A DNA stretch of 64,000 bases. It comes from a bacterium. Lineage in GTDB: Bacteria; UBA8248. The position numbers were made by a program, and so were the translations under genes. Below the pieces are notes generated by a model, which searched no databases, was not told the origin of the DNA, and saw only the letters and a list, made by a program, of their open reading frames with translations. Below are positions 7,965 to 30,100 of this stretch, one piece after another (within the stretch, counting starts at the first letter, position 1; each line of letters begins with the position of its first letter). The stretch covers positions 480,001 to 544,000 of the forward strand of contig CBDCRP010000002.1 in assembly GCA_965221165.1 (NCBI GenBank). Reading direction: 5' to 3'.

Positions 7965-8040
7965 TTGCTGTTAATCCGTGAACATCCAAGCAGTTTCATT
8001 CATCATAATTCTTGACATATCGGCAAGGGCGGATTTCGAT

Positions 8041-10417: not shown

Positions 10418-10457
10418 TCATCATGTAAAAACTGGAACGGCCCTTTCGAGGGCCGCC

Positions 10458-11996: not shown

Positions 11997-12010
11997 ATTG
12001 TAGCTACAAT
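11997..12010. promoter_or_regulatory. Perfect 14-bp palindrome ATTGTAGCTACAAT, probable antitoxin autoregulatory operator
   Basis: Lies between TTGACA (11978-11983) and the RBS of the DinJ/RelB gene. Confidence 0.6.
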
Positions 12011-12037
12011 GAGGCTACATAATAGGAGGGTACCAAA

Positions 12038-12295
12038 ATGCCGACGGATACGGTCGTGCGCGCCAGAATCGACAGCGAGACCAAAGCCCGCGCCACCGAG
12101 GCGCTGAACGCCATGGGCCTTTCCGTTTCCGATGCGATTCGCCTGCTCATGATGCGCGTGGCGGATGAGCGAAGGCTGCCCTTCGTCGTCCGCGCGCCGA
12201 CCCCCGCCACCCGCAAGGCGATGAAGGAACTCGATGAGGGCAAGGGCAAGCGCTTCGAGAGCGCCGAGGCGCTGTTCGAGGATTTGGGAGCCTGA
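12038..12295 (+). CDS. RelB/DinJ family antitoxin (no adjacent toxin)
   Basis: VVRARID…ATEALNAMGLSVSDAIRL…RLPF ribbon-helix-helix pattern; FESAEALFEDL end. Confidence 0.9.
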   Translation: MPTDTVVRARIDSETKARATEALNAMGLSVSDAIRLLMMRVADERRLPFVVRAPTPATRKAMKELDEGKGKRFESAEALFEDLGA

Positions 12296-12425
12296 CTGAA
12301 CACATACTTCCACTCCACTCCATTCAAGAAATGAATCCTCAGTGAGACCGATTACGCTTTACGATTGACAGCAAGATACGTCATTGTATGGCCGCATCGC
12401 TGGAGTTTCGGGAAGGAGAATCTGA

Positions 12426-13793
12426 ATGCCGTGCGCAGGGATAAATGTAAAATCGGGTGAATCAATTACCATGATCCCTTGTCAGTTTTCGTTCGAATAT
12501 CCAGAAGATGAGTTGATGGAAGTGGACGGCAAACTATTGTGCCACTTCCACGCACCGCTTGAAGATAAGAGCGGCAACCTCACGGATAAGGGGGAATGGA
12601 CGCATCATGAAATAAATGGATTCAATCAGAAAATCCTTACCTTTCAAACAAATACCTTAAAAGCACAAGGAATGCTGAATTTAAGTGGCGTTGTTTTCCC
12701 CGGTGAGGCACGTTTTCAAGAGAGAGAATTTCCTGAAGTTAATTTTTCTCATGCACAATTCAATGGGCATGCCTATTTCTTTTATGCAAAATTCAAAGGG
12801 CATGCAAATTTCTCATTTGCACAATTCAAAGGACAGGCTTCTTTCAACAATGCAAAATTTAAGGGAGGCTACACATTCTTCCTGAATTCGAAGTTTGAAG
12901 AAAATGCCGAATTCGAGACCGCCATTTTCAGCGGCATGGACGTATCCTTTAACAATGTGAAATTCAAAAAGACTGTTAGCTTTCAACATTCTATATTCAG
13001 CAGCGAATCCGCTAAATTTCGAGATGTCGAATTTCACGATTTAACTATTTTCCAAAATGCTCGGTTTGAAGGGCGCGCTGACTTCAGAACGATGGGAAAC
13101 AACAGTGATTTGGATGCATTTCATGACGTTGTTAATTTTGAAGGCGTGGAATTTTTCGACTACGCCATTTTTGAGAATCGAAATTTTCGAAAAAGAACTA
13201 TCTTCAAAAATTGCACCTTTCATAAAGCGCCCCACTTTCATGGCTGTCGCTTCCATCAAGATACAAATTTCACGGATGCCAGATTTTTAGATAACCAAGG
13301 AGATGAAGCAGCCAGGGCATACCGAACGCTGAAACTGGACATGGAACAAAAAAGGGCGCGACAGGAGCAGTTGAGGTTTTACGCCCTGGAGATGAAAAGC
13401 AGGCGCAGTGAAGAAAAAAGGAAATTCTTGAAGTTCATCTCCTGGCTGTATGAAGCAACTTCCGATTACGGCCAGAGGATTTTTTTGCCGCTGGCGTGGC
13501 TGGTGTATTCCTTCCTGGTCTTCGCTTTTTTCTACGCGGCGTATTTCAAGGGACTGACGGATTTGGATGCGGCGAGTATTCTGCCGCGGTCTCTACATTT
13601 CAGCATCAAGCAAATCGTCCGCCCGTTCGGCGTATTCGGCTCTTTATCAAATTCCGGTATTTGGGGGAAAATTCCACCTTCAAGTCTCCTATCCCTGCCC
13701 CTCATTATCGCGGCCACGCTTCAATCGTTCCTGAGTCTCGCCCTACTGCTCCTGAGCGGCCTCGCGGCGCGCTGGCGCTTCAAGATCGGGTGA
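12426..13793 (+). CDS. Pentapeptide-repeat protein with C-terminal membrane segments
   Basis: Repeats of A-x-F-x-x-A-x-F-x-G (e.g. AQFNGHAYF, AKFKGHANF); SDYG followed by hydrophobic helices; AT-rich. Confidence 0.8.
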   Translation: MPCAGINVKSGESITMIPCQFSFEYPEDELMEVDGKLLCHFHAPLEDKSGNLTDKGEWTHHEINGFNQKILTFQTNTLKAQGMLNLSGVVFPGEARFQEREFPEVNFSHAQFNGHAYFFYAKFKGHANFSFAQFKGQASFNNAKFKGGYTFFLNSKFEENAEFETAIFSGMDVSFNNVKFKKTVSFQHSIFSSESAKFRDVEFHDLTIFQNARFEGRADFRTMGNNSDLDAFHDVVNFEGVEFFDYAIFENRNFRKRTIFKNCTFHKAPHFHGCRFHQDTNFTDARFLDNQGDEAARAYRTLKLDMEQKRARQEQLRFYALEMKSRRSEEKRKFLKFISWLYEATSDYGQRIFLPLAWLVYSFLVFAFFYAAYFKGLTDLDAASILPRSLHFSIKQIVRPFGVFGSLSNSGIWGKIPPSSLLSLPLIIAATLQSFLSLALLLLSGLAARWRFKIG

Positions 13794-14061
13794 GGGAAAT
13801 AGGGCCGATGCGCAACCGCTTACTTCACCCGAGCGCCCGAGCAATCCAGCGCGTGCCTATCGGGTCGACCACCGAATTTTCTCCCGCGGGAACTATGCAT
13901 TTCCCCGTATCACCATCTGGTCGTGATGGGACGAAATCAACAGGATAAATCCGGATCTTAGAGCGGCGAAATCAGGTCTATAATTTCTGAAAATAAGTGA
14001 AAAATAGTAAAAAATAAGACAAATATCTGAAAAATTCTGAAAATTTATCGCACGCGGGTGG

Positions 14062-14126
14062 TTATCCACATAAATACACAATATTTGGGGATACCGTGTG
14101 GGTAAGTTCATATATTTTGTGGATAT
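14062..14126. promoter_or_regulatory. DnaA-box cluster
   Basis: TTATCCACA perfect (14062-14070); one-mismatch boxes on - strand at 14097-14105 and 14118-14126. Confidence 0.6.
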
Positions 14127-14209
14127 CGATTTTTTTTATATTGACAGAGGGGAACAAAGCATACTACATTTAGTGTTACGAGTTGGTTTCGTCATACTAA
14201 ATATGTCCC
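14076..14209 (+). promoter_or_regulatory. NrdR-box-like operators and sigma70-type promoter of nrdJ
   Basis: ATACTACATTTAGTGT (14161-14176) and ACACAATATTTGGGGA (14076-14091) resemble acaCwAtATaTwGtgt; weaker partners 31-33 bp downstream of each; TTGACA at 14141. Confidence 0.65.
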
Positions 14210-14246
14210 CGACATAGCGGGGCGCCTTTAGCGGAGGAGACAGGGA

Positions 14247-17200
14247 GTGGAGTTTACGAGGCGTTTTACCCGGGCCGGAGATGAGGCGTATAGCGACATT
14301 CGTTTCGCGCCGCGCACCTCACGCATCACCAACCCGGACGGCTCGGTCGTCTTCGAAGCCAAGGATATCATGGCGCCGGAGAACTGGTCCCAGGTGGCCG
14401 TCGACATTCTGGCGCAAAAATACTTCCGAAAAGCTGGCGTTCCCGCGCATTCGAAAAAGATTCACGAAGAAGGAGTGCCCGAGTGGCTGCAGCGCTCGGA
14501 GCCAGACACGGAGAAACTCGAACCCTTGCCCGAAGCCGAGCGATTCGGAAGCGAGCGAGACGCCCGGGACGTTTTCCATCGCATGGCGGGATGCTGGACG
14601 TACTGGGGCTGGAAACACGGTTACTTTCATACAGAGGACAACGCCAAGGCGTTTTATGAGGAGCTTTTATACATACTTGCGAGCCAGATGGCTGCTCCCA
14701 ACTCGCCGCAGTGGTTCAATACGGGCCTGCACTGGGCCTACGGCATTACACGCCCTGCCCAGGGCCACTTCTATTGCGATCCCGAGACGGGGGAAATACT
14801 CCGCTCCGTGAATGCTTACGAGCGTCCCCAGCCACATGCGTGCTTCATACAATCGGTAAAAGATGATCTCGTCAACGAAGGCGGAATCATGGATTTATGG
14901 ACGCGCGAAGCGCGCATCTTCAAGTACGGCTCGGGAACCGGCACGAATTTCTCGAGCCTGAGAGCGGACGGAGAATCGCTATCGGGAGGTGGGAAAAGCT
15001 CCGGCCTCATGAGTTTCCTGAAGATTGGAGACCGCGCCGCGGGCGCCATCAAGTCAGGCGGCACGACGCGCCGGGCGGCGAAAATGGTTACACTCGACAT
15101 AGACCATCCCGACATCGAGGAATTCATCAACTGGAAGGTGAACGAAGAACAGAAAGTGGCCTCTCTGGTATCAGGCAGCAAGATGTGCAGCCGACATATG
15201 AACGCCATTCTCGGGGCTTGCTTGGAGGGGGAGAACCTGGGCTTGAATGGCAACTTTCATCAGCCGGATAAAAATCCATCACTCGCCAAAGCGATACGCG
15301 CCGCAAGGCTCGCCGGTGTTCCGGACAATTACATTCATCGAACCCTTCAACTCGCACGTCAAGACATCACCGAGGTCGAGTTCGAGGAATTCGACACGAA
15401 TTGGGAAGGCGAGGCCTACACTTCAGTGTCCGGGCAAAACTCGAACAATTCCATACGTGTTTCGGATGGATTCATGGAAGCCGTCGAGAAAAACACGGAC
15501 TGGAACCTGATTCGGCGTACCGATGGCGAAATCGCCGCCTCCGTCAATTCAAAAGAACTTTGGGAACAGATTGGATATGCGGCGTGGTGCTGTGCAGACC
15601 CCGGTCTTCAATTCGACACGACTATCAACGACTGGCATACATGCGCCGCCGATGGGCGCATCAATGGTTCCAATCCTTGCTCGGAATACATGTTCTTGGA
15701 TGACACCGCATGCAATCTGGCGTCCATGAACCTCATGAAATTCCTGGATATCGACAAGAATCATTTTCGGGTAGAAGACTATCGCCACGTTATTCGCCTA
15801 TTGACGGTTGTCCTCGAAATTTCAGTGCTTATGGCGCAATTCCCCAGTGAGGAAATAGCCAAACGCTCATATGAGTATCGAACCTTGGGACTTGGATACG
15901 CCAACCTGGGCACCGTGTTGATGGTTCTCGGCATCCCTTACGATTCGCCGGAAGCAGAAGCATGGTGCGGCGCTCTCACTTCCATCATGACGGGTTGCTC
16001 GTATGCCACCAGCGCCGAGATGGCGGGGGAACTGGGAGCTTTCGCAAGGTATCAGGATAATCAAGAACACATGTTGCGCGTTCTGAGAAACCATCGCCGC
16101 GCAGCTTATTCCGTGCCTGAAGCCGAATACGAAATGCTCTCTAAAGCGCCCAAAGGAATCGCTGCGGAAATCTGCCCGCATTACCTTCTTGATGCGGCGC
16201 GCGAAGCGTGGGATGACGCTTTAGCCATTGGCTATCGAAACGGTTACCGGAATGCGCAAACCACCGTTATCGCCCCGACAGGCACCATCGGTTTGGTCAT
16301 GGACTGCGACACAACGGGAATCGAACCGGATTTCGCTCTGGTGAAATTCAAAAAACTGGCCGGAGGCGGTTATTTCAAGATCATCAACCAGTCTGTTCCC
16401 GTTGCTCTGCGGCATATGGGCTATGCCGACGAGGAGGTTCGCGAAATCGTCGCTTACTGCCGAGGGCGAGGCACTCTCACGAATGCGCCTCACATCAATC
16501 CAGAGTCTTTGCACGCGAAAGGATTTACCGGTAAGGCTCTCGAAAAGGTGGAAGCCGCACTAGAAGGGGCATTTGAAATCCAGTTCGCCTTCAACAAATA
16601 CTCCCTCGGTGAAGATTTTTGTCGTGAGGAATTAGACCTCAGTGAAGCGCAGATGGCCGACTGGAATCTGAATCTGCTTGAAGCCATTGGTTTTACCCCA
16701 GAGCAAATAAGCGAAGCGAATGATTTCGTTTGCGGCAAAATGACGCTAGAAGGCGCACCTCACCTAAAAGAAGAACATTTGGCTGTTTTTGATTGTGCAA
16801 GCAAATGCGGGAAAGAAGGCAAGCGCTTCATCAGTCCCATGGCACACGTCCGGATGATGGCGGCGGCGCAGCCCTTCATATCGGGCGCCATCAGCAAGAC
16901 CATCAACATGCCCGCAGAATCCACGATCCAAGATATCTTAAGCATCTACCATGAATCGTGGCAGCGGATGACCAAAGCCATTGCAATTTACCGCGATGGT
17001 TCCAAACTGAGCCAGCCGCTTTCCGCGCAAAGCGAAGCGGAACTCTTCAATGACATCGGTGAAGAAGAAACAACTGCTGACCAAAGCGCTCCGGTTCGCG
17101 TCGCCCAGCAAATTGTGCGCCGGATTATTTACCAATCCAGAAGACGCAAGCTGCCCACCCGCCGTGGTGGCTACACGCAAAAAGCCGTCATCGGCGGACA

Positions 17201-17840
17201 CAAAGTCTATCTTAGAACCGGGGAATATGAAGACGGCTCCATCGGCGAAATTTTTATAGATATGCACAAAGAAGGCGCTGCCTTCAGAAGCCTCATGAAT
17301 TGTTTCGCCATCGCAATTTCGCTGGGTCTTCAGCACGGCGTACCATTGGATGAGTTCGTGGATGCTTTCCTCTTCACGCGTTTCGAGCCGGGCGGTATGG
17401 TCTCGGGCAACCCGCATATCAAGATGAGTACATCTATCATCGATTACATTTTCCGTGAGCTGGCCGTTTCATATCTCGGGCGCCACGACCTTGCACAAGT
17501 CGTGTCAGAAGACCTGAGAAGCGATACTATTGGGCGACCTCAAGAAGAGATTCCGGAGTTCGATACAGAAGAAGAGGAAGAGATTCGAACCATAATCCCA
17601 GGACCGGATGCAAGCGCACCACGCAGTGACCGAGTAAGTTTGAATTATGACAAAGAAACCTCTAGTGCCTCGATGGCACCTCTAACAAAAGCAAGTTCCG
17701 CTCTTGATTCCCGTATCGAAGAAGCCCGCGCTAAAGGATACGAGGGTGAAGCATGTGGTGATTGTGGTTTATTCACCTTGGTGAGAAACGGCACATGCCT
17801 GAAGTGCATGACTTGTGGCGCTACGAGCGGATGTTCTTAA
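14247..17840 (+). CDS. nrdJ: Adenosylcobalamin-dependent (class II) ribonucleotide reductase
   Basis: [23 protein letters not shown] thiyl Cys, [16 protein letters not shown]-terminal TSCPD-like domain with CxxC…CxxC…GCS. Confidence 0.97.
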
Positions 17841-17849
17841 AAATTACTA

Positions 17850-18150
17850 CCCGTCGTGGGGAAAACGGGCGGACTCTGCGACGGGACGAGAGTCGGGGGA
17901 GAATCCTCGGAGGGCTATCCCCCGACTCTCACCAAAATAGGGTTTCAGGAAATTTTCTTGTTGCGGGGGAAACGGGCGGACTCTGCAGCAAGACCGGGGG
18001 CCGGGGATAATACACCTCGGGGGTTGAGTTTCCGGCCCCCACTTAAATTCAATGGTGATTTTCTGCTGCGGGGGAAACGGGCGGACTCTGCGGCAGGCCG
18101 AGAGCCGATGGAGCCTCCTAGTGGGAGTCTTCATCGGCTCTCCCTTTTTC
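17850..18150 (+). ncRNA. Tandem array of three ~105-bp two-hairpin units (candidate structured RNA)
   Basis: Conserved core GGGG(A/G)AAACGGGCGGACTCTGC three times inside different but self-complementary stems; each is followed by a second hairpin; the last ends in a T-run. Confidence 0.6.
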
Positions 18151-18159
18151 GGTAGTGTC

Positions 18160-19035
18160 TCACTTTGAAATCTTCTTCTTGTAAGGGCCACGCGGACCCG
18201 GCTTCGGTTCCCGCGCTTCAATGAGTTCGAGTATCCAGTTCATATCGCGCAATTCAGAATCAAGGCCAGCGGCCATCGCTGGCGTAACCCGCAAACTTTT
18301 GTGGATGCGGCAAAAGTTATAGTGCACGAAATACAACGATAGCATGTGGATATGATTCTCAAGTTTCTTCGAGAAGCCATTCGTTAGACGAGTGAAACGG
18401 CGCATACACATTCTCATGGTGAGGTTTTGTCTTTCAGCGTAGCTGGTGGAGATATGCGCCGGATCGGCCATTCCGGTTACCATCGACATTCGAGTTCCAA
18501 TACATTCAGAAGGGCTGTATCTCCCATCCTTCTCTGATTGACCATATAGCTTCACTAGCATGGCGTAATCAACATCATCCCCAAAGGCATCTTCAACCGC
18601 GTCAAGATATGCCTTGTGGCCGTCTGTGGTCACCTGAACGCGGTTTGCGAGTCTTTCCTTTACATCGGCCATGAACTCATTCGCATAGCCGCTATCACGA
18701 CCGCCTACGAGATAAGAGACAATCAGTTTGCTATCGGCATCTAAAGCCGTCCACGTCCACACGTCACCCGCATCTTCCGGTGCGGCTTCGGCAGTCGCCA
18801 CGTTCTTTTGCTTCGCATAGACAAACGACCATATCTCATCGCACTGGATTCTCTTTGACTTCACATTGCGAACTTGGTGGTCGTGAAATTCTGCGCAAGC
18901 CTCTCCCGCTTTGATGAGCAGTTTCGTCACAGTGTTGATGGACGCGCCCGTTACGCGGGAGATTGCCCGCATGGACATTCCCTCGATAAGAAGGTTGAGT
19001 ATTTGGATTCTTTTATCTGTGTGTAATTTGTTCAT
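18160..19035 (-). CDS. IS1-family DDE transposase (single ORF)
   Basis: HTH (GMSMRAISRVTGASINTV), IQCDEIWSFV, TTDG, ERQNLTMR, RFTRLTNGFSKK; stop codon inside IR. Confidence 0.9.
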   Translation of the reverse strand: MNKLHTDKRIQILNLLIEGMSMRAISRVTGASINTVTKLLIKAGEACAEFHDHQVRNVKSKRIQCDEIWSFVYAKQKNVATAEAAPEDAGDVWTWTALDADSKLIVSYLVGGRDSGYANEFMADVKERLANRVQVTTDGHKAYLDAVEDAFGDDVDYAMLVKLYGQSEKDGRYSPSECIGTRMSMVTGMADPAHISTSYAERQNLTMRMCMRRFTRLTNGFSKKLENHIHMLSLYFVHYNFCRIHKSLRVTPAMAAGLDSELRDMNWILELIEAREPKPGPRGPYKKKISK

Positions 19036-19041
19036 ACATAT

Positions 19042-19070
19042 AATATATGAACTTTATTGCTTAGTGTCAA
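19042..19070 (-). promoter_or_regulatory. Consensus sigma70 promoter of the transposase (probably leaderless mRNA)
   Basis: TTGACA-17bp-TATATT on - strand ending 6 bp before the ATG; no SD. Confidence 0.6.
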
Positions 19071-19080
19071 GTGCAAAGTG

Positions 19081-19344
19081 CTACTCTTTGGAAAAAACTT
19101 CCGAATTAAATGGAGTCAGGTTTTTCCATTTGCGGTCATCGCTTTTTAACCACTCTTCATCATAGTGGTAGACACGACTTTTGTGGTGCCCACATATTAT
19201 TTCTACCGCCGACGAATCGCCTGCTTCTAGCTTTTCTGCATTCTCTTCATCTGTGATGAAATATCCAGTCTCGTTCTCATCTAAAATCACTCCCACGAAA
19301 ACATCATCGAAAGCGCATCTGACGATTACCTTTTCTCCACGCAT
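19081..19344 (-). CDS. Hypothetical IS passenger protein (87 aa)
   Basis: GGAGA RBS, acidic, directly upstream of the transposase. Confidence 0.55.
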   Translation of the reverse strand: MRGEKVIVRCAFDDVFVGVILDENETGYFITDEENAEKLEAGDSSAVEIICGHHKSRVYHYDEEWLKSDDRKWKNLTPFNSEVFSKE

Positions 19345-19516
19345 CTCAAATCTCCATTTGGGCGAGGTTCAAACCTTGCCCATTCTACCAGTGCCACAAA
19401 GTAGATTCAAAAAAAGTCTAATTTTTACGATTTATGGTATTGACTCTATGGCACATACCGTTAATATCTATCAGATGTTAATGGTAATGGCACAACTCTA
19501 ATGTGAGGAATTTAAT

Positions 19517-20212
19517 ATGAGCGACGAAGCCGGATCCAAAACACCCGCCCCGCCATATTTGGCGTTCATTACTTTTCTGGGATTCATAGAGTCGATGGCG
19601 ACCATTGGTCTCCCGCATCAGATCGACAAGAGCATCATGAAAAATATGTCTGGCGCAAATCAAAATTGGACGCTTAGTTGCCTGAAATATCTCAAACTGA
19701 CCTCAGAAGGAAATAGGCCTACAGATAAATTCAAACAACTCGTTTCGGTGGATGGCGAAAACAGAAAAGAACTGATGAAGGATATCATAATCAACGCATA
19801 TCCTTTCATATTCAGCGCAGAAGGATTTGATATTAAGACCGCTACGGAAAAACTACTTAATGAGCAATTTGACAGTACAGGGGTGGTAGGCGATACGAAA
19901 AAAAAATCTGTCAGATTCTTCATGAATGCGGTGAAGCATGTAGGTATAGAAATTTCGCCTTATCTGGATCAAATGAAACTCCGAGCCAGGACACCCACAA
20001 AAAACAAAAAAACAAAACGTCCTCTAGGAACCAATGGAAATAACAAGACGAAAGATAAAGAGCCACAAGAGCCGCCAGAAAAGGAGAAAGACACATCCTC
20101 CGACAGTAATTTCAATCAATCTCTCCTAGACAAGATTCCTCCGTTCAATCCTGAATGGACTGAGGAAACTTTGATTAAGTGGCTGGATACAATTAGCAAA
20201 CTGAAAGGGTAA
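19517..20212 (+). CDS. DUF5343-like IS passenger protein
   Basis: PPY…P..ID…LKYLKL..GNRPT N-terminal pattern typical of DUF5343; GAGGA RBS; TTGACT-16-TAATAT promoter at 19440-19467. Confidence 0.6.
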   Translation: MSDEAGSKTPAPPYLAFITFLGFIESMATIGLPHQIDKSIMKNMSGANQNWTLSCLKYLKLTSEGNRPTDKFKQLVSVDGENRKELMKDIIINAYPFIFSAEGFDIKTATEKLLNEQFDSTGVVGDTKKKSVRFFMNAVKHVGIEISPYLDQMKLRARTPTKNKKTKRPLGTNGNNKTKDKEPQEPPEKEKDTSSDSNFNQSLLDKIPPFNPEWTEETLIKWLDTISKLKG

Positions 20213-20217
20213 AAACA

Positions 20218-20246
20218 CCCCCTGATGGAGGTAAGCCATCAGGGGG
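20218..20246. terminator. Strong 11-bp hairpin between the DUF5343-like gene and the tRNA-like genes
   Basis: CCCCCTGATGG-aggtaag-CCATCAGGGGG; T-run follows on the - strand. Confidence 0.6.
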
Positions 20247-20255
20247 GGATGAAAC

Positions 20256-20331
20256 GGCCCCGTCGCCAAGTGGTTAAGGCGCGCCTCTGGCAAGAGCGTA
20301 TACGCCGGTTCGATTCCGGTCGGGGCCTCCA
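20256..20331 (+). tRNA. Irregular tRNA: Cys-like body, GGC (Ala) anticodon
   Basis: 76-nt cloverleaf: acceptor GGCCCCG/CGGGGCC, U73, CCA; D-arm GCCAAGTGGTTAAGGC; loop CT-GGC-AA; C30-A40 mismatch. Confidence 0.75.
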
Positions 20332-20344
20332 AATGAGATTGAGT

Positions 20345-20417
20345 GGGGGGTGTGGATGGTTCCCAGGTCAGGACTTAGGCCCCCGTCCTTGGGGTTCGAT
20401 TCCCCAACCCTCCACCA
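20345..20417 (+). ncRNA. tRNA-like RNA with alanyl acceptor (G3:U70, A73) and aberrant D/anticodon arms
   Basis: Acceptor GGGGGGT/ACCCTCC-ACCA; T-arm TGGGG-TTCGATT-CCCCA; mini D-arm GGA-TGGT-TCC; AGGAC/GTCCT arm with 10-nt loop. Confidence 0.65.
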
Positions 20418-20423
20418 ATCTCA

Positions 20424-20648
20424 TTACTTCGATGTTCCTTTGTTCCACCGCGAATTTGCGGCTTTTTGTGCAATCTCTTTTCGTCTTTCAGGTGATAGCT
20501 TTTCTGCGCGGGCACGTCCGCCCGATCTGCCAAGTATCTGCCCAGCGGTCTGAGTCTCCACAACTTCACCCACCGCAATCTTGGCTACATTGACTGCGCA
20601 CCCTACCACATCACCGGGTCTTTTCTGTCCTTGTGGGCCAGTAGCCAT
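20424..20648 (-). CDS. Small basic protein typical of IS1-like cargo elements
   Basis: GQKRPGDV…GGRARAEKLSPERRKEIAQKAANSRW motif; next to the right IR. Confidence 0.75.
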   Translation of the reverse strand: MATGPQGQKRPGDVVGCAVNVAKIAVGEVVETQTAGQILGRSGGRARAEKLSPERRKEIAQKAANSRWNKGTSK

Positions 20649-20775
20649 GTCGAAAATTCCTTTTATGCAATGACGACTATTATCGTCACACGACGATTAT
20701 TGTTGCAACCCCTTTCGAAGTCAAGGGAAAATGGAGGGCGATAAATTTCAAAGTGAGACACTACCCCTTTTTCAC

Positions 20776-20804
20776 TTGACACCCGATGCTCCTTCACCTA
20801 CCTT
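20776..20804 (+). promoter_or_regulatory. Promoter of tRNA-Ala
   Basis: TTGACA-17bp-TACCTT upstream of the tRNA. Confidence 0.6.
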
Positions 20805-20818
20805 CAAGTTCCTTTTGT

Positions 20819-20894
20819 GGGGGTGTAGCTCAGATGGGAGAGCGCGTGGATCGCACCCACGAGGTCAGGGGTTCGAATCCCCTCACCTCCACCA
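20819..20894 (+). tRNA. tRNA-Ala(CGC)
   Basis: Canonical cloverleaf, G3:U70, anticodon loop AT-CGC-AC, TTCGAAT, ACCA end. Confidence 0.95.
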
Positions 20895-20944
20895 ATTCGA
20901 TTTCATGAACAGATTCCATTTTTCAGAAATTGCAACCTTTACGC

Positions 20945-21787
20945 CTAGAGCATGGCGATAGCCGCATCTCGCGTCCTCATGCCTTCTTGCACTCCGCGTT
21001 TTTCAGCCACTTCATTCATGCATGAAATGATGCCATCTTCCCAAGTGCTCATCACATCGCCAATGCGCGCGCTCATGGCACCAACCGCAGCCACCGCGAT
21101 ACCCTCTCGCGCCAGATAAGAAAAAGCAGCGATACCAGAGTCATCTTTCCCCCGACCCGCATCATTCGCAATGACACCCTTGAGATTGAGCTTGATGACA
21201 TGCGGAACGAGAGTGAGTCCGCAATGCGAGGCTTGGATAAAAATATCATCGGGCCTTGGCTCTTTTATAGAACGCAGGACGGGAATTCCCCATGAGGCAC
21301 GTATATTGCCATCAGGAAAATGCTCTAATTCATAAATTCTATCATCAAGACTCTCTTCAATAATCACTTTTCGGCCCACTTCCCCATTGAGCAAACAATT
21401 CGAGGCCTCAGCTATTGACTGACCGATTTCAACACCTAGGTCTTGAGCTGCTTGATTCGCATGGCCAACTTTACCTTCATACACAGATTCGCCCACTGCG
21501 AGCCTCGCTGACATGGTCTCGCACGCTAAGGCCGGCACATTATATTCCTGAGCCAAGCAGAGGCCACTGATACCAGCATCATCCTTGCCAACTCCCGCCG
21601 CATGTGCGACCACTGCTCTCGCACCCAAGCGCATTGCCCAGGCAATTGTCATGCGTGCAGCATAAGAACCCCCAATGAGAACATCCCTTTCACCAACCCT
21701 GTGATCAAAATATGTCATCGAGTCCGCTGAGAGAACGCGGCCACGCATGTCTTCATGATGAATAATTTGCTCATCTGTCGCCATCAT
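20945..21787 (-). CDS. Conserved hypothetical protein with internally duplicated domain
   Basis: Repeated halves: AGVGKDDAGISGL…MSARL and AGRGKDDSGIAAF…MSARIGD; AAGGA RBS. Confidence 0.7.
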   Translation of the reverse strand: MMATDEQIIHHEDMRGRVLSADSMTYFDHRVGERDVLIGGSYAARMTIAWAMRLGARAVVAHAAGVGKDDAGISGLCLAQEYNVPALACETMSARLAVGESVYEGKVGHANQAAQDLGVEIGQSIAEASNCLLNGEVGRKVIIEESLDDRIYELEHFPDGNIRASWGIPVLRSIKEPRPDDIFIQASHCGLTLVPHVIKLNLKGVIANDAGRGKDDSGIAAFSYLAREGIAVAAVGAMSARIGDVMSTWEDGIISCMNEVAEKRGVQEGMRTRDAAIAML

Positions 21788-21842
21788 GTTTCCTTTTTCA
21801 TAAGTCATGAAGCAGCATCTGTATTCTGCCGTCATTTCAGAG

Positions 21843-21878
21843 CAAAAGAAACGCCCGGTCGATATCACAACCGGGCGT
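21843..21878 (-). terminator. Intrinsic terminator
   Basis: ACGCCCGGT/ACCGGGCGT stem followed by TTCTTTT on - strand. Confidence 0.6.
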
Positions 21879-21902
21879 CCAATGATTTTCCACTACGGGG
21901 CA

Positions 21903-22070
21903 CTAATATACGGCAGGAGCATTCCCCCCTTCGCCGTCACTTAAGATGCAGAAATTTTCACTTACATTTTTATCAGGTACATCATATTCCACATCCGTCG
22001 GCAATACGTCTCCAGACTCTGCAAAAAACTCATGGTCCAGAACAACAACATTATCTGTCAATTGAATCAT
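21903..22070 (-). CDS. Small acidic protein (55 aa), hypothetical
   Basis: GAGGA RBS before ATG and its own downstream terminator. Confidence 0.4.
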   Translation of the reverse strand: MIQLTDNVVVLDHEFFAESGDVLPTDVEYDVPDKNVSENFCILSDGEGGNAPAVY

Positions 22071-22438
22071 TTCATCCTCATTCTGTGGGCGGCTCGAAAT
22101 CACTTTGCTCCAGCTTTTTTCGAACATCGCAAAGTCAGGAAATATACTCAAAAACTATCGAAAAAAGCAATACTTTTTTATCCATAACCCCTTATTTTTC
22201 AACTGAAAAATATGTTGATCCAAGCGATACTGCTATATTTTCGGGTGCTATCCGAGAATTGAAAAATCTTGAACAACGAAAAATGAAAAATATAGGAGGT
22301 GTGCAGTTCAGACGACTTTATCTTGTTCAGCACATAGTATGACTTTCATGGACGCGCGCACGACTAAACGGCTATCCACAAAATTGAGGGTTTGCGCGAT
22401 ATATTTTCTTGATGAAATGCCGGATTCGGCCGAACTAT

Positions 22439-23104
22439 TTACTCCATATCCTTCTCTTGAAATTCGATGCGCCCTCCCGGAGGTTCCACCACCAAGTGAA
22501 GCGCCTCAGCCAGCCTTCCTGAAAGGTGCCACATACCACAAATAAAAGTGAGTTCCACAATCTGACGAGCGGAGAAATATTTTTTCATTTCACCGAATGC
22601 GAAGTCGTTATTCTTTGCCGTAAGCTTCGACACCTCATCCGCCCACCGGATAACGGCTTTTTCCTTATCATCGAATAAATCGCTGTCTTTCCAATAATCG
22701 CCTTCAAGCAGATTTATCTGCTCCTGAGTAAGACCCAGAACTCGACCGAGCTCCACATTGTGCCCAATTCAGTTGTTGCATTCGGTCAATATCGCCGTTT
22801 TGACGATGACAAGCTCCATGAGGCGAATATAATCGGATTCCGTCTTTAATCGATTCGTGCGGAGCTTTTGGTCGAGGAACATCCACGCTTCCATGGTGGG
22901 AGGAGCATTCCCCAGTAGCTGCAAAAAACGCGGGACGGTGCCCCACATCCGAGTTGACCACTCATAGAGCGGAGTCAGTTCATCTTTGAGTTCAGCGGGA
23001 ATGTTATCAGGATCAACGAAAGGCAACCTCGGTAACGGACAAGCCATCATCTCGTCGGTCACGCCCAGACTATCCGGCAAGCTTGTTGCTTCGTCCATAG
23101 GCAT
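22439..23104 (-). CDS. AhpD/carboxymuconolactone-decarboxylase-family protein with in-frame UGA (probable selenocysteine, CxxU)
   Basis: Two ORFs in the same frame joined by TGA 22769-22771: …TEC-N-N-U-IGHNVE…; SECIS-like hairpin downstream. Confidence 0.8.
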
Positions 23105-23136
23105 TGGATTCTCCTTAAAAAAGTATTGGGTGTGAT

Positions 23137-25392
23137 TTACGCGCTATTCGTCGCCAGAGCCTCACTAATATGATGCGGGCCAACGGGCAATGAAAAAACT
23201 GGTATTCCGACAGCATCCTGTATGGCGTTCACTATAGCAGCTGCAGTCGCCACTATGGGCGGTTCACCCACCCCCCGCATTCCATAGGGTGTGCCCTCGG
23301 CCGGATTGTCATACAAAACGGCATTCAATTCGGGCATATCCATGCTGGTTGGTATCAGATATTCATGGAAGGTATCGCCGTGCAAATTCCCATCCGGGTT
23401 TCTTGGTTGCTCTTCCATCAAAGCCAAACCAAGCCCCTGTATCATGGCGCCCTCAATCTGTCCGACCACAGACAATGGATTTATCGCAAATCCCACATCC
23501 TGCACACATGTAAGGCGCAAAACCCTGATTTCGCCAAGTTCCGGATTCACGGCCACATCCGCTGTCTGTCCGGTATGTATGGGACACGGAGGTGGCTTCG
23601 CGCTTTCGCCTTGTCCAATTAAAAATCCCTGAATTTCAGGGGCGGCCTTAGCCACCTGTGCAAGCGTAAGGGCTCGCTCGGGTGCCGAAGCTACCTTGAC
23701 CTGGCCATCTTCCAAAACCAGATCGTCCGCAGCGGCTTCTAGTTTTATGCTCGCCACATTCAAAATTTTATCTCGCAAATCGCGCGCGGCACTCAAGGTG
23801 GCCATTCCCACCGCGCGCGTCGCCTTGCTACCCGATGCCGCAGATGATTCGGGCACCGAATCCGTATCGCCGTTCGTATAGCGCACCTCATCCAAACCGA
23901 CGCCTAACTCCTCCGCGGCCAACTGGCATATGGAAGTACTCATGCCCGTGAGGTTCACCGTTCCAGCTATCACTTGTACGGTGCCGTCTTGATTCAAGCG
24001 AACCGTGCAACTAGACGCCTCTCCCGGCCCTGGCCAATATCCACAAGCAATCCCGCGGCCTAACTTCCAACCCTCTCCTTCAAGCTCTCCGTTTACTTCA
24101 ATCTGCTGCCCCCACTGTCCCTCTATGGCTGTTGAATCGAGGACGCTACGCATGGATGAGTTCTGCTCCTTGCCAGCCAGCGTTTCATCCCCGGGCCGAA
24201 GAGAATTGATTCGCCTTATTTCAAGCGGGTCGATCCCCATCTCGCGTGCGATGATGTCCATTTGCACTTCGGTGGCAAAGTGATACTGGGGACCGCTAGG
24301 AGCACGCACAGGACCACAAACGGGTCCATTGGTATACACCGTACATGCGCGAATTCTAACGTTGAGAATGCGATACGAACTTGATCCCATAAGCATCTTG
24401 CTACTGCATTGGAATGGCGCGCCCCGTCCATACGCCCCATGATCCATCGTGACATCAAGTTCCCGGGCGACAAAGGTACCGTCATTTTTCACAGCTGTAC
24501 GTATGGTGATGAAATGAGGGTGCCTTGGATTCACACTGATATGATCTTCTTCGCGGGTCATCTCCATGCGCACGGCTTGGTCCGTTTTCAAAGCCAATAG
24601 CGCAGCTATGTGCTCATACGTGCTCTTCAATTTTGCGCCAAAGCCACCACCAATTTCGGTAGGGATGACGCGAACCTGCGTTGCAGGAAGCCCTAGAGCC
24701 TCAGCCACGTCCGCCCGAATGGCCCACGCATCCTGCGTGGTTGTCCAGACCGTGACTTTCCCGTCCGTACCAGCTTCGGCAGTACACGCATGGGGCTCGA
24801 TGTAGCCGGCATGTACAAATGGCGTGGAAAATGTGTGCTCAAAAATACGATCCGCCTCTTTATAACCGGCGTCAACATCACCGATTTCTTTTTCAAACCG
24901 GGCGATGATGTTCTTGTCCGCATTGGGGCCAAGTCCTAATTCTTGCCAATCTTCATGTACGGCAAGACCCTTACCTGCACGGCTATCCAAGCCGTTTACC
25001 ACCGGTTCTAAAACTTCATATTCCACGCGGATCAACTCGATGGCTGCTTGGGCGGCATCCATATCCTCCGCAGCCACAGCGGCCACTGGCTCTCCGCCAT
25101 ACCGAACAAATCCATCTTGCGCAAACCAACTCTGATCTTTGATGTTGGCGCCGAATCGAATACGAGGAGCCTCATCTCGCGTCACTACAGCGCGGACGCC
25201 AGGGATATTGCGCGCCTCGGTCGCATCCACGTTTTTCACTTTTGCGTATGGATACGGGCTGCCCAACACAAGGCCTATTAGTGAACGGCTCGATGGGACG
25301 TCAGCCGCATATTTCGCACTTCCAGATACTTTGTCCGGAGCATCAATTCTGGTGAGGCCCAAGCCCGCCACTTTGTAGTCTGTCATTTCCAC
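23137..25392 (-). CDS. Xanthine dehydrogenase/CoxL-family molybdopterin-binding large subunit
   Basis: KVSGSAKYAAD, IGGGFGAK, GQIEGAMIQG, GVGEPP. Confidence 0.92.
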   Translation of the reverse strand: MEMTDYKVAGLGLTRIDAPDKVSGSAKYAADVPSSRSLIGLVLGSPYPYAKVKNVDATEARNIPGVRAVVTRDEAPRIRFGANIKDQSWFAQDGFVRYGGEPVAAVAAEDMDAAQAAIELIRVEYEVLEPVVNGLDSRAGKGLAVHEDWQELGLGPNADKNIIARFEKEIGDVDAGYKEADRIFEHTFSTPFVHAGYIEPHACTAEAGTDGKVTVWTTTQDAWAIRADVAEALGLPATQVRVIPTEIGGGFGAKLKSTYEHIAALLALKTDQAVRMEMTREEDHISVNPRHPHFITIRTAVKNDGTFVARELDVTMDHGAYGRGAPFQCSSKMLMGSSSYRILNVRIRACTVYTNGPVCGPVRAPSGPQYHFATEVQMDIIAREMGIDPLEIRRINSLRPGDETLAGKEQNSSMRSVLDSTAIEGQWGQQIEVNGELEGEGWKLGRGIACGYWPGPGEASSCTVRLNQDGTVQVIAGTVNLTGMSTSICQLAAEELGVGLDEVRYTNGDTDSVPESSAASGSKATRAVGMATLSAARDLRDKILNVASIKLEAAADDLVLEDGQVKVASAPERALTLAQVAKAAPEIQGFLIGQGESAKPPPCPIHTGQTADVAVNPELGEIRVLRLTCVQDVGFAINPLSVVGQIEGAMIQGLGLALMEEQPRNPDGNLHGDTFHEYLIPTSMDMPELNAVLYDNPAEGTPYGMRGVGEPPIVATAAAIVNAIQDAVGIPVFSLPVGPHHISEALATNSA

Positions 25393-25490
25393 CTCATAGA
25401 GAAATATGGCTTAAACCGTTAGAAGTTATGGTACTCGATAATCAATTAATGCTTTTACCACGCAACTCATAAAATTCATCTCCCATCCAC

Positions 25491-25892
25491 CTATTCAGGA
25501 ACATCCGGTGGCCTCATGCCATGCGTGGCACGAATTTTCGTTTTGATATTTCCTCTCACATTAAAATCACCTTCAATCCATATCCACTTCGGTTCACAAA
25601 CTTCAACCAAATCATCGAGTATTGTGCTGACCACTTGTTCATGAAAAATTTCTCGGTCCCTGTAATTATTGATGTAGAGTTTTAAGGACTTCAACTCGAC
25701 TATTTTATCTCCAGGAACATATTTAATGTGGATAGTGGCGAAGTCAGGAAAATTACTGATCGGGCAAAGACACGTAAATTCGGGAACAGTGAAATCGACA
25801 ACGTAATCTCTTTGCCTTGAGGGATTCGGAACAGCCGCCAGCTTCGTCTCGGCAATCATCTTCGCGCCATATTTCATCTCACCTTGAGACAT
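25491..25892 (-). CDS. queF: NADPH-dependent 7-cyano-7-deazaguanine (preQ0) reductase, type I
   Basis: PEFTCLCP…[12 protein letters not shown] QueF motif, FHE, VRGNI. Confidence 0.93.
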
Positions 25893-25897
25893 TTTCG

Positions 25898-27006
25898 TTA
25901 TGCACCAGGGGTCAGATTCACTAACAAAGCACCGTCTTTTCGAGCCACAAACGTATCGTGCGCCTCTTGATATTCCTTGAGGGGGAAACGATGGGTGATG
26001 TATGGATCCACTTCCATTCTCCCGGCATGAATGAGCGATAAAACCTCATCTCCACAATTAGGATTCGCTCGAACACCAAAAATATCCATTTCCTCAAGCA
26101 CAACGCGTTTCCATGCCAAATCATGGATGTTGTCCGGTATGCCGGTAATGGCGACACGCGCGCCTTTTCCGCCACAATCCACACTCCACTTGAAACTATC
26201 CGTGGTTCCCGCCGTCTCCAGCACCACGTTGGCTTTCCTTCCGCCAGTCATCTCATTAATCCGTTCTGGCACACCCCCGTCTCGGTAACTGACGACTTCA
26301 GCACCTTGTTCCTCCAAAATTTCGAGTCTCTTGCCGCCTCCCACAACAATAATGCGGCCTGCGCCCATCGCCTTGGCTGATTCATAGGCGAAAACACCTA
26401 TGGGACCCGAACCCAATATCACGACCGTATCGCCGGGGTTGATGCCTGGGCGCTTCGCTGTCCAGAGACCACAAACAGCCGGGTCCACGGCTGAACCATA
26501 CTCGAAAGACATGCCTTCCGGCATCTTGTGCAGCGCACGTATATTGTTGGTCACATACTCCGCATATGAACATATGAACCTTGCGTGATATGCCCATATT
26601 GCCTGTGGCCAGTGACTGTATTTCCATAATTATAGCAGAGGTTATAGCGGCCGATGAAGCACATGCGGCAAGCGCCGCACCCTGCGTGGCTCGTACCCGC
26701 CACGGAATCACCCATCTCCAGACCGAACCCCTCGGTCATCGGACCCATTGCGACGATTCTGCCAGACCACTCATGCCCTAAAATGGACGGAAGTTTAGGC
26801 GGCCAGCGGGGAAGATGGCCCCCTTTGATGATTTCAATGTCCGTACCACAAATCGTGGTACACTCTACTTTGACAAGCACTTCTCCAATATCCGGCTCAG
26901 GAACAGGAACAGACTGAATTTCTAGCTCTTCGGGCGCGGTCATTACAACCGCTTCCATGTTATCCCCTATCTCTTCGCCATAACGCACTTCGAATTGTGA
27001 GGACAT
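25898..27006 (-). pseudogene. Zn-dependent MDR alcohol dehydrogenase, frameshifted
   Basis: ICGTD, GHEWSG, CGACRMC in the 5' part; GSGPIG Rossmann motif in the 3' part; 8-bp duplication CATATGAA at 26563-26578 shifts the frame. Confidence 0.88.
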
Positions 27007-27132
27007 AAAACTTACACTCTCCTTCAATTTGCTGCTGCTTGACGATCAGTTTTGGAATGAATGCCAGGTTCTCGCAAATCCATTACAACACCTTCCCACA
27101 AGCTGGGCAGTGATGAACGATAGTTTATCGCA

Positions 27133-30100
27133 CTAGATACCTATTTGTCCCTTCTGTGGTGAATGCACATCTACTTCTTCTCTCGTTAGCCATCTGCCCG
27201 TCCATAGGCGCCACCAAAACCGCCCGACGTCGTTTCCGATTAAAGAAATTACAGGAACCAGAACAAGCGTTATCACCGTGGCGAAAAGTAGCCCAAAACA
27301 CAAACTAATCGCCATGGGGATCAAAAATTGCGCTTGAAAACTTTTCTCGAACAATATTGGCCCCAGTCCTGCGGCTGTTGTTAATGTGGTCAGAATAATG
27401 GCTCGCCACCTGGCGACACCGGCCAAATGAAGCGCATCTTCAATCGACATCCCCTCCTTGATGCTTCGATTTGCGAAATCCAAAAGCACCAAAGAGTCGT
27501 TCACCACCACGCCGGAAAGCGCCAAGATCCCCATCATACTCAATATGGAGATATCGAACCCCATGACAACGTGTCCCCAAAAGGCGCCTACTATCCCAAA
27601 CGGAATAGCACTCATGACAATGAAGGGTTGAAAATAGCTCCTGAACAATGTGGCCAAAATCGTAAAAATAACGGCTATCGCAATTGCGAAGGCGCGGAAC
27701 AGACTGGCAAATGATTCTCTTGTTTCTTTTGCCTGACCCTCGAATCTAAATCCTATCCCCTTATAACGGTTGAAGAGTTTTGGAAAAAAGTTGGCTCTCA
27801 GGTCACTTAGGACTTCAGTGGGATTGGCGCGTTCCGAGTCAATATCGGCCGTCACATTTACAACTCTTCTCCTGGCCGCGCGTTTGATTTCATCAAGGCC
27901 TTGAATCATCTTGACTTCCGCCACTTCATAGAAAGGTATTTCCGCCCCCGAAGATGTTCTAACCCTCATATTCTTGATATCTTCGAGAGAACGCCTTTCC
28001 TCTGGCGGGTAACGCAGTTTCACCTTCACGTCCTCACGTCCACGTTGCAGACGCAGGACTTGCAGCCCGAAAAAGCTTGCGCGCAATTGACGCGCCAAGT
28101 CATCCAGGCTCACTCCCAGCACTCGAGCCTGTGATTTCAATGAAGTTTGAAACTCGAGTTTTCCGGGTCTGAAATCATCCTGGATATCGTATAAGCCGGG
28201 ATATTTTCTCAACTCCAGCTTCAACTCCTGAGCTATTCTTTTCAAAGCCTCGATATCGTCACCATAAAACTGCACATCAATCGGCTTTCCACCGGGCGGC
28301 CTAGCTCCCCCGGCGCCAAAAGTCAGGCTTATTACGTCAGCGATTTCCCCTGTCTTCTCACGCCAGCGGTTGGTAATTTCCTTCGCGCTGATCCCCCTGG
28401 CTTCTGAGGGTAGCAACTCGACGATCAACTGAGCCATATGGCTTCCCCCCGCGACACGTCCACGACTTTGGCCTTGTTCGACTTGCTCGCCCAGCATGGT
28501 AAATACATGTTTGACGATAGGCTCTCCCGTTTTCGAGCGAAAATCCTCATCAAGAGACATGGCCGCCTGTTCGATCCTTTTTGTTGCGAGTCGTGTTTGC
28601 TGAATCGGGGTGCCCTGTGGAAACAGGAGCCTGGCTTCCACCCAGTCGGAATCGAGTTTTGGGAAAAACAAAAATCTCACGTGCCCGCTTACTGCCAAAC
28701 CTACCGTCACCATGAAAACCACTACAGCAACAGCGATGATCAGGTACCTGGCGCTGAGACAAAATCTCAGAATCGGCGCATAAAATCGGTGGATCAGCCA
28801 GTTCACGGCCCTTTCGATGGTATTCCTTACTCGCGATGAGATTCCGCCCCTCCTCGGTGGCCGCACCCAGTGTCCCAAATGAGCCGGCAGAATGAACAAC
28901 GACTCGATGAGAGAAGCAATTAGTGCGGCGATGATGGCCGCCGGGAACACCGCCATGAACTTCCCGACAGTTCCCTCCATCATCAGCAGAGGTATAAAAG
29001 CAACTATGGATGTCACTACAGTGGCAATAACGGGCAAGACTACTTCATAACAGCCATCAATAGCGGCCTGAACGCGGTTTTTCCCTCTTTCCATATGTGA
29101 ATAAATATTTTCAGCCACTACGATGGCGTCGTCCACCAGGATTCCCAAAACCATGATGAACGCGAACATGGTCAGCATGTTGAGCGTACCGCCGGAAAAA
29201 CTCAAGAAACCCAGCGATGTCAGCAGGGAAATAGGAATACCCAGCGCAACCCAAAAAGAAAGGCGGATGTTCAGAAACAACCACAGAGAAATGAAGACCA
29301 AAACGAGCCCCATCCGCCCGTTTCTCAAGAGAAGATCGAGTCGATCTCGTATCAACCGCGAGGTATCCGCCCAATCGGCCAAATGCAATCCTTCGGGTAA
29401 TTCCCGGCGCTTTTTCTTCACATATGCAGCTACTGCTTTTGAAATCGAAAGCGCATCTTCTTTCTCGGTCCGGTACACTGTGATGAGAGCAGCCGGTTTC
29501 CCATCGAATCGACCCGTTCTATCGCTGTCCTCAAAGGCATCGACCACACGAGCGATATCACCAAGTCTCAAAATGGTGCCGTCTTTCTGAGTGAGTATTT
29601 CAAGCCGCTCGAACTCGAGACCCGTATAACGCTTTCCCAATGTTCTGATCCTGATTCTCCGCTCCGAAGAACGGATATCACCACCTGAAAGCTCCAGCAC
29701 GTTTTTGCGAATGATATTCGCAAGCCGCTCAAACGTGAGGCCATGGCGGCGAAGCGTTTCCTCAGACATTTCGATTGAAATTTCCCAATCCTTCAACCCG
29801 GTCAGAACCACCTTGGAAATGTTGGACATATCCACCAAATCATCCTTGATTTCTGTGGCTTTGCGTTTGAGGATTTCTTCTGAAACGTTTCCGAATAAGG
29901 AAAGGTGAACCACCTGATTCGTCCGCTTTACTTCCGTAACGACGGGCCTTTCTATGTCCTCAGGCAATGTGTTGATACGGTCGATCTCACCTCTTATATC
30001 TTCCATCAACTCCCGGGAGTCTTTAATCCAAGAATGTAACTCCACCATCACATTGCAGCGCCCTTCATAGGCGACCGAATTTATTTTTTTTATCCCCTCC

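Follow-up and report, generated by a model that had tools for sequence, protein, structure and literature searches.

To our knowledge, bacterial tRNA mimics that hold an amino-acid identity without decoding are rare, and the main examples are transfer-messenger RNA (tmRNA) and a few 'irregular' tRNAs. Viral 3′ tRNA-like structures and mascRNA are likewise tRNA mimics, set within longer RNAs, recognized by tRNA enzymes and not decoding. The text of Mukai et al. (2017; PMC5389517) describes irregular tRNA genes of soil bacteria that form clusters near transposon-related or toxin–antitoxin genes; some of these carry G3:U70, and some have their identity triplet at positions 35–37 and are chargeable but unused in translation. 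The allo-tRNAs in that text have 8/4 or 9/3 acceptor/T stems and a long variable arm, and those with G3:U70 insert alanine in E. coli. Here we describe a 73-nt tRNA-like RNA (the mimic) encoded in a 64,000-nt stretch of the genome of a UBA8248 bacterium (contig CBDCRP010000002.1, positions 480,001–544,000; the window, by which we mean this whole stretch). The mimic belongs to a widespread family of 70–75-nt tRNA-like RNAs that has no entry in Rfam release 15, and it lies as internal cargo in a recently inserted IS1-family transposon of 2,615 bp (18151–20765). We favor, with moderate confidence, the reading that this transposon-borne family member is transcribed, excised, charged with alanine and non-decoding, by a mechanism that we infer.

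The mimic and its immediate flanks comprise three features.

20345–20417, plus strand: tRNA-like RNA (the mimic), 73 nt, with an Ala-type acceptor stem, a mini D arm, an irregular middle hairpin, a T arm, A73 and CCA
20332–20341, plus strand: 5′ arm of a flanking 10-bp stem, AATGAGATTG
20416–20425, plus strand: 3′ arm of the same stem, CAATCTCATT, overlapping the last two bases of CCA

The 7-bp acceptor stem pairs GGGGGGT (20345–20351) with ACCCTCC (20407–20413), which places G3 opposite U70, and is followed by A73 at 20414 and CCA at 20415–20417. The T arm is canonical (TGGGG-TTCGATT-CCCCA). The D arm, GGA-TGGT-TCC, consists of a 3-bp stem and a 4-nt loop, and a middle hairpin, AGGAC-(10 nt)-GTCCT (5 bp, 10-nt loop), replaces the anticodon arm and variable loop. 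A first-pass annotation of 20332–20425 had described this structure, and we found each of its elements in place. Relative to canonical tRNA (RF00005), the mimic has the 7-bp acceptor and the 5-bp T stem with 7-nt T loop, and lacks the 5-bp/7-nt anticodon arm, the variable region and a normal D arm. It shares with canonical bacterial tRNA-Ala the acceptor identity set, T arm and discriminator base, but departs from it in its 3-bp/4-nt D arm and in having neither a 5-bp/7-nt anticodon arm nor a variable loop. With tRNA-Sec (RF01852: long acceptor, 6-bp D stem, UCA, long variable arm) it has only the 4-nt D loop in common. Viral 3′ structures and mascRNA are eukaryotic or viral RNAs, whereas the mimic is bacterial, sits on a DNA transposon and carries the full alanine identity. 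The irregular tRNAs and allo-tRNAs, as the text of PMC5389517 describes them, resemble it in being non-canonical genes, and both the gene next to the mimic and a cluster at locus L093 fit that description; unlike allo-tRNAs, however, the mimic is 7/5, with no variable arm or regular anticodon arm, and so falls outside the allo-tRNA definition. The literature searched held no description of the family, although the 'tRNA0/tRNA2' groups named in the text of PMC5389517 may include it.

Standard gene finders pass over the mimic. ARAGORN called only 20256–20331, as 'Ala(GGC)', and tRNA-Ala(CGC) at 20819–20894 in this part of the window, and Rfam at its gathering thresholds agreed on these two neighbors and likewise left the mimic uncalled. 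Its sub-threshold Rfam scores were 25.4 bits for tRNA-Sec and 24.2 bits for tmRNA (cut-off 47 each), with 19.1 bits for mascRNA-menRNA. A six-member covariance model gave the mimic 87.2 bits (E 8e-17) in its own 3.69-Mb genome, a score inflated because the window sequence is among the six model seeds, so that the homologs are the independent evidence; the next matches there were ordinary tRNA-Ala genes at 35–37 bits, and the mimic is single-copy. The 94-nt stretch of mimic plus flanks folds at −48.3 kcal/mol (z = −3.9; 0 of 200 shuffles as stable). The 74-nt core alone, by contrast, has ordinary stability (z = −0.23; 70 of 200 shuffles equally stable), so the argument for a genuine RNA depends on comparison and not on folding energy.

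BLAST found the mimic unit in three congeners (genomes G003, G006 and G008), whose acceptor stems carry compensatory changes and retain G3:U70. For a wider search we took a motif from the D loop and T arm, with GGTTCCC and the T arm fixed and the acceptor stem outside the pattern. The scan returned 25 loci in genome contigs, 19 of them with the family acceptor stem; a single locus in viral contigs, itself a family member (1/1); and 53 loci in metagenome contigs, of which 52 were scorable and 39 were members. Together, motif scan and covariance model yielded 46 distinct relatives across many phyla, from taxa that include Desulfobaccales, Dehalococcoidia, Pirellulales, Sphingomonadales, Terriglobia, Woesebacteria and a Nitrospinota metagenome-assembled genome. 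The mimic has a patchy distribution, being present in 5 of 51 genomes from the phylum and in 4 of 23 from the genus. We also sought extra copies that would define element ends; each of six genomes held one copy and no more.

A model-based alignment of 63 rows, 49 of them distinct, paired in 96.1% of cells, against 79.7% in shuffles, and in both the acceptor and the T helix 99% of cells were paired. Two-sided changes affect acceptor pair 4 in 11 of the 49 distinct rows, pair 5 in 18, pair 6 in 13 and pair 7 in 26. The covariation score was 0.347, compared with 0.069 in shuffles (0 of 500 reached 0.347) and at most 0.097 in slid controls; the shuffle controls overstate significance, because many rows are closely related. 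Pair 3:70 is G:U in 46 of 49 distinct rows, and the three exceptions (L116, L105 and L095) do not have a family-type acceptor. Among the 46 distinct members, all retain G1–C72, G2–C71, G3:U70 and A73, that is, the complete tRNA-Ala identity set also present in the window, while pairs 4–7 covary. The T arm is kept as well, but its invariance and that of GGTTCCC are built in, and more divergent relatives are missed, because the search pattern fixed both.

Family members keep the upper half of a tRNA-Ala, with its elbow, and have a replaced lower half. The D stem is shortened to 0–4 bp, with GG kept in a small D loop, and the T stem has 5 bp and the loop UUCGAUU. Between D loop and T stem, 25–28 nt form a single irregular hairpin in place of anticodon arm and variable loop. 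In most members, a strong hairpin also precedes the mimic by a few bases. These data bear on the idea that the mimic is a decaying tRNA-Ala pseudogene or an attachment-site remnant without function. Its low-GC, mobile surroundings, a duplicated tmRNA 3′ fragment elsewhere in the genome and its silence in gene detectors would all suit a relic. A remnant would keep only the 3′ part of a tRNA, however, whereas both acceptor strands are present and covary across phyla; the odd architecture is kept in 46 distinct sequences; and the homologs are not one recent clone, given how widely acceptor pairs 4–7 differ. We consider a functionless relic very improbable, and the acceptor covariation effectively excludes it.

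The mimic could be a non-canonical Ala tRNA that reads stop or sense codons, like suppressor or mistranslating allo-tRNAs, with its long middle helix replacing the stacked D and anticodon stems. Some members do have 7-nt loops with U at loop position 2, such as CUCUACA (L056) and CUAUACA (L055); many loops place N-U-A at the anticodon position; ARAGORN calls L039 and L113 tRNA-Gln(CUG); and a type-II tRNA(CUA) adjoins the mimic in G003. Alanine insertion by G3:U70 allo-tRNAs in E. coli, as given in the text of PMC5389517, also speaks for decoding. Yet only 10 of the 46 distinct members have a 7-nt hairpin loop in the minimum-free-energy fold; loop lengths run from 3 to 14 nt, and the loop in the window has 10 nt. 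Putative anticodons differ between close relatives, position 37 would often be C where the loop fits an anticodon-loop template, and 0 of 15 family members tested reached the Rfam tRNA gathering score. The transposase and DUF5343 open reading frames near the mimic contain no in-frame stops to suppress. A decoding role therefore seems unlikely to us. The first-pass proposal of a chargeable but non-decoding RNA is supported in spirit, as a prediction from sequence, by the alanine identity set in 46/46 members, the covariation of pairs 4–7 and the irregular middle arm.

Among described RNAs, the tRNA-like domain of tmRNA (RF00023) comes close in form. It shares with the mimic G3:U70, A73, a 7-bp acceptor and a canonical T arm, as well as a D stem that is shortened or missing, a loop that contains GG, a helix closing just before the T arm and the lack of an anticodon. 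Unlike tmRNA, the mimic has 73 nt, no tag-peptide frame or pseudoknots and 24.2 bits against the cut-off of 47, and it is transposon-borne. A 'mini-tmRNA', a message-less tRNA domain that binds SmpB and enters stalled ribosomes or competes with tmRNA, would account for the G3:U70 and A73 of the mimic, for the tmRNA-like topology of members without a D stem, for the Desulfobaccales group, in which a GAUU linker precedes GGUUCCC and a helix then closes just before the T arm, and for the 89% likeness over 36 nt between the 3′ half of the G042 mimic and tmRNA 3′ ends; the Rfam tmRNA score itself points the same way. That score is nonetheless far under its cut-off, and the mimic has neither tag frame nor pseudoknot. 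The host has a normal tmRNA elsewhere in its genome (170.9 bits), of which the mimic is not a fragment, and the transposon carries no SmpB-like gene; the model of its DUF5343 protein resembles winged-helix DNA binders. We regard the mini-tmRNA as less likely still than a decoding tRNA.

We also considered descent of the mimic from the host tmRNA and rejected it: the host tmRNA and its duplicated 3′ piece both differ from the mimic in sequence. This duplicated 3′ fragment (G000:C3:1497245–1497308; L019/L022) lies about 1.2 kb downstream of the tmRNA gene and ends in TCA rather than CCA. It resembles the scar left by an element that integrated into ssrA.

The transposon that carries the mimic, which the first-pass annotation had missed entirely, contains or adjoins the following features.

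18143–18150: left copy of the target-site duplication, CCTTTTTC, repeated at 20766–20773
18151–18171: left terminal inverted repeat, outer end GGTAGTG..., matching 20745–20765 at 21 of 21 positions in inverted orientation
18160–19035, minus strand: IS1-family DDE transposase, 291 residues, its stop codon within the terminal repeat
19081–19344, minus strand: orf87, a small open reading frame with weak homologs in L053 and L107
19517–20212, plus strand: DUF5343 protein (Pfam PF17278), 231 residues, directly upstream of the RNA genes
20218–20246: GC-rich hairpin upstream of the RNA genes, with a T-run on the minus strand only
20256–20331, plus strand: irregular tRNA-Cys-like gene (ARAGORN 'tRNA-Ala(GGC)'; Rfam tRNA 51.7 bits)
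20424–20648, minus strand: orf74, a small convergent open reading frame whose C-terminal motif, about 28 residues long, is also seen near the mimic in L096 and L109
20448–20471, plus strand: terminator-like hairpin and T-run just 3′ of the mimic, from the consensus scan only
20745–20765: right terminal inverted repeat, ...GAGACACTACC, an end type that recurs in six other elements
20766–20773: right copy of the target-site duplication, CCTTTTTC, present once at the empty site of congeners
20819–20894, plus strand: host tRNA-Ala(CGC), outside the element, which inserted 2 bp upstream of its −35-like TTGACA

The inverted repeats, the 8-bp duplication and the empty site in congeners together identify 18151–20765 as a recently inserted transposon. 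The site is uninterrupted in 8 of 8 congeners examined, with an exact single CCTTTTTC in the four closest and a variant of the octamer in the other four. In the four closest, CCTTTTTC stands between a hairpin and the −35-like TTGACA of tRNA-Ala(CGC). The transposase scores 27.3 bits with Pfam DDE_Tnp_IS1, above the cut-off of 24.1, but 68 bits with the NCBIfam IS1 model, below the cut-off of 100, and is 62–67% identical to plasmid transposases annotated as IS1 family. The element ends begin with GGTAGTG, which fits the IS1 end GGnnnTG. In its DDE transposase with IS1-like signatures, short inverted repeats and 8-bp duplication, the element resembles IS1-family transposons with passenger genes. 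Elements of the window type carry an RNA as a recurrent internal module; in the literature searched, we found no IS1-family element with a built-in tRNA-like RNA gene, and no RNA component of such elements at all.

The association between mimic and transposase extends well beyond the window. Six other elements (L031, L034, L037, L050, L053 and L056) enclose a mimic between terminal repeats of this type (...GGACACTACC) and show 8-bp duplications. Of 59 other family loci, 35 have an IS1-like transposase downstream of the mimic and on its strand: 10 of 20 in genome and viral contigs and 25 of 39 in metagenome contigs, where 4 of the 14 loci without one have less than 250 nt of downstream sequence. 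These mimic-adjacent transposases are 39–61% identical to each other, and the window transposase is 39–49% identical to those downstream of the mimic in other loci. In most relatives the mimic lies 30–340 nt upstream of the start of the same-strand transposase, and in many loci 30–55 nt. The idea that the mimic acts as a guide RNA was rejected: the seven target duplications share no common motif and do not match the loops, and L031 and L034 differ in target although their loops are identical.

The short distance to the transposase start raises the possibility of a cis operator in the transposase leader, through which alanyl-tRNA synthetase (AlaRS) or another tRNA-binding protein would tune transposase translation or mRNA stability to the translational state of the host, with charging itself of no consequence. 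In L109, hairpin and mimic lie about 45 nt downstream of a near-consensus TTGACA-17-TATAAT, which would place both in the 5′ leader of the transposase, and AlaRS binding would also explain the retention of G3:U70. The window mimic, by contrast, lies outside the transposase leader, and solo copies, together with copies in irregular-tRNA clusters, point to a trans-acting RNA. We judge the operator improbable, to about the same degree as a decoding tRNA.

For the reading that we favor, a charged and non-decoding RNA, the steps can be laid out as follows. A consensus scan of the window placed a promoter-like site at 19440–19467 and a terminator-like site at 20448–20461, with no T-run on the plus strand after the hairpin at 20218–20246; from these sites, the mimic would be transcribed together with the upstream DUF5343 gene and the tRNA-Cys-like gene. 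Enzymes of tRNA maturation would excise it, through RNase P, 3′ trimming and, where CCA is not encoded, CCA addition. The host AlaRS would charge it with alanine, since we know of no other reader of G3:U70, and the charged RNA would not decode codons. In the common arrangement, excision of the mimic would also cut the transposase mRNA free and would therefore set the fate of that mRNA, which suggests excision as a control of transposase expression. Such 'punctuation' of the transposase mRNA cannot apply in the window, because the transposase there lies on the opposite strand and has its own promoter-like site.

Several observations weigh against this reading, beyond the two limits of the alignment given above (the fixed search pattern and the closely related rows). 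Only 9 of the 46 distinct members encode CCA. The window transposase is on the strand opposite to the mimic. No mimic was found within 3.5 kb of the closest isolate transposases (62–67% identity; 0 in 4 loci, filters off), which lie on plasmids of Acidiphilium, Hoeflea, Mesorhizobium and Methylocapsa. On the plasmid of Hoeflea sp. (NZ_CP011481.1, L147 1055–5278), a 4.2-kb IS1-family transposon with a near-identical terminal repeat and an 8-bp duplication carries an XRE regulator and hypothetical genes and no mimic; it has the same repeat type as the window element with other passenger genes. Solo mimic copies away from any transposase occur in L093, L103, L113, G003, G006 and G008; those of G003 and G006 adjoin restriction-modification genes, and those of L093 and L113 stand in chromosomal irregular-tRNA clusters. 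Because the closest isolate transposases and the Hoeflea transposon lack it, the mimic is not needed for transposition in general. Hence, it is a frequent module of these transposons and not a universal requirement.

A further proposal goes beyond charging. A family of DNA transposons may own an aminoacylatable tRNA mimic as a working part that couples the element to the host translation apparatus; we offer this tentatively and think it possible rather than probable. Coupling could run through control of the fate or level of the transposase mRNA, or through anticodon-independent action on ribosomes or on enzymes that use aminoacyl-tRNA. The mimic and the shifted-anticodon tRNA-Cys-like genes that accompany it at several loci would, under the same proposal, define a mobile class of 'chargeable but non-decoding' tRNAs. 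Whatever its function, the family spans many phyla, retains the whole alanine identity set under selection and forms a physical part of IS1-family transposons. If the mimic is charged and important to the element, transposon biology would be linked to the aminoacylation machinery, and the mimic would be a natural, compact and anticodon-free AlaRS substrate. A covariance model of the family would improve mobile-element annotation, because tRNA finders and Rfam release 15 miss these genes.

Directly upstream of the mimic, the irregular tRNA gene at 20256–20331 had been read as its 'reciprocal', with an Ala anticodon and no Ala acceptor. We find instead a tRNA-Cys-like gene: it has U73 and the D arm of host tRNA-Cys, and its anticodon stem contains a mismatch. 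Aligned with host tRNA-Cys, it is identical in 56 of 78 columns, and with host tRNA-Ala(GGC) in 48 of 80. Its loop, CUGGCAA, holds GCA at positions 35–37, shifted by one base in the 3′ direction from the anticodon position. When any N-GCA is read a base too early, the triplet becomes NGC, an Ala anticodon, and the apparent Ala anticodon is thus most simply taken as a by-product of a one-base shift. The host has a normal tRNA-Cys(GCA) as well as tRNA-Ala genes for GGC, UGC and CGC. The pairing of a mimic with a Cys-like tRNA (U73, GCA at 35–37, called as UGC) recurs in L074, L093 and L119, and in clusters of this type a 93-nt tRNA(UAU) with G73 follows the Cys-like tRNA. We note that such clusters, in L093 (3550–3815) and also in L074, L119 and L113, combine the mimic, the shifted-anticodon Cys-like tRNA and an 88–93-nt tRNA(UAU) with G73, and that they resemble allo-tRNA(UAU) polycistrons described from soil. 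The mimic of G003 is followed directly by a type-II tRNA of 88 nt (L003 1408–1495, minus strand; ARAGORN 'Pyl'), which has A73 and the amber anticodon CUA. The same gene, at L067 5464–5548, scores 59.7 bits with the Rfam tRNA model.

The flanking stem is a local feature. AATGAGATTG and CAATCTCATT are perfectly complementary, so the 10-bp extension of the acceptor helix proposed in the first-pass annotation is a real pairing in the window. Among 45 distinct members, leader–trailer pairing is strong in the window (−13.0 kcal/mol), G003 (−11.8) and L070 (−16.3) and unremarkable in the other 42, including the congeners G006 and G008. With strong pairing in 3 of 45, we rejected the stem as a family feature and regard it as lineage-specific.

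The gene upstream of the RNA genes varies between loci. At L041, L043, L053, L056 and five metagenome loci, a DUF5343 homolog immediately precedes the mimic. A HARE-HTH protein takes this position in L048 and L050, and at other loci an unrelated 'X' protein of about 270 residues is encoded on the opposite strand; a shared origin of these three kinds of upstream protein was rejected, with hhalign probabilities of 0.3%. An Atlas lead to DUF5343 among the upstream proteins scored 0.89 and is rated a lead only. In a sample of 83 genomes of the order Desulfobaccales, the mimic follows 4 of 4 DUF5343 genes, and these four pairs are probably related elements. An AlphaFold2 (AF2) model of the window DUF5343 protein (predicted local distance difference test, pLDDT, 88) suggests a DNA binder, as its residues 7–155 resemble FokI/BrxA-type winged-helix DNA-binding domains (VIA-align Z 6.8–7.4). 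A SmpB-like partner for the mimic was sought with the same model and rejected, since only FokI/BrxA-type winged-helix domains matched, at Z 6.2–7.4; values in this range lie under the tool's own caution line and may reflect only a common arrangement. A search for DUF5343 genes gave 2,150 clusters at E ≤ 0.001. Foldseek with the model returned nothing at E ≤ 0.001, DUF5343 had no match in plasmids, and our literature search found no paper on it. PADLOC gave weak matches only, to the candidate PDC-M34A (E 1e-4 and 1e-3).

The small open reading frame orf87 has no Pfam match. The recurrent C-terminal motif of orf74 is basic, and an orf74 transcript would cross both RNA genes in antisense to the minus-strand terminator at 20246–20218.

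Restriction-modification genes recur beside the mimic, in L066 (G006; 4687–5968), L067 (G003; 6508–10916), L053 (3252–5897) and L050 (4072–5223). They include MunI with an MT-A70 methylase, a methylase with a ResIII helicase, a large N6 methylase fusion and an N4/N6 methylase.

GC content falls to 0.46–0.53 over about 12000–32000, compared with about 0.61 on either side, and this low-GC stretch extends far beyond the transposon. Genes in it encode a class II ribonucleotide reductase and a molybdopterin dehydrogenase, as well as a pentapeptide-repeat protein and an AcrB-type pump. The interval 17858–18142, which separates the ribonucleotide reductase gene from the transposon, contains three direct repeats of about 25 nt, spaced about 105 nt apart (17858–17880, 17962–17986 and 18067–18092), and two 43-nt palindromic hairpins (17888–17930 and 18100–18142); the last unit is conserved in congeners. 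In three loci, finally, the transposase end of the element lies 50–100 bp upstream of an ordinary tRNA gene: Ala-CGC in the window (20766–20894), Arg-CCG and Arg-CCT in L043 (~2658–2787) and L070 (~5675–5848), with the element end mapped in the window and L043 only. These tRNA-upstream sites, together with A/T tracts in the target octamers, may reflect a preference for promoter-upstream DNA.

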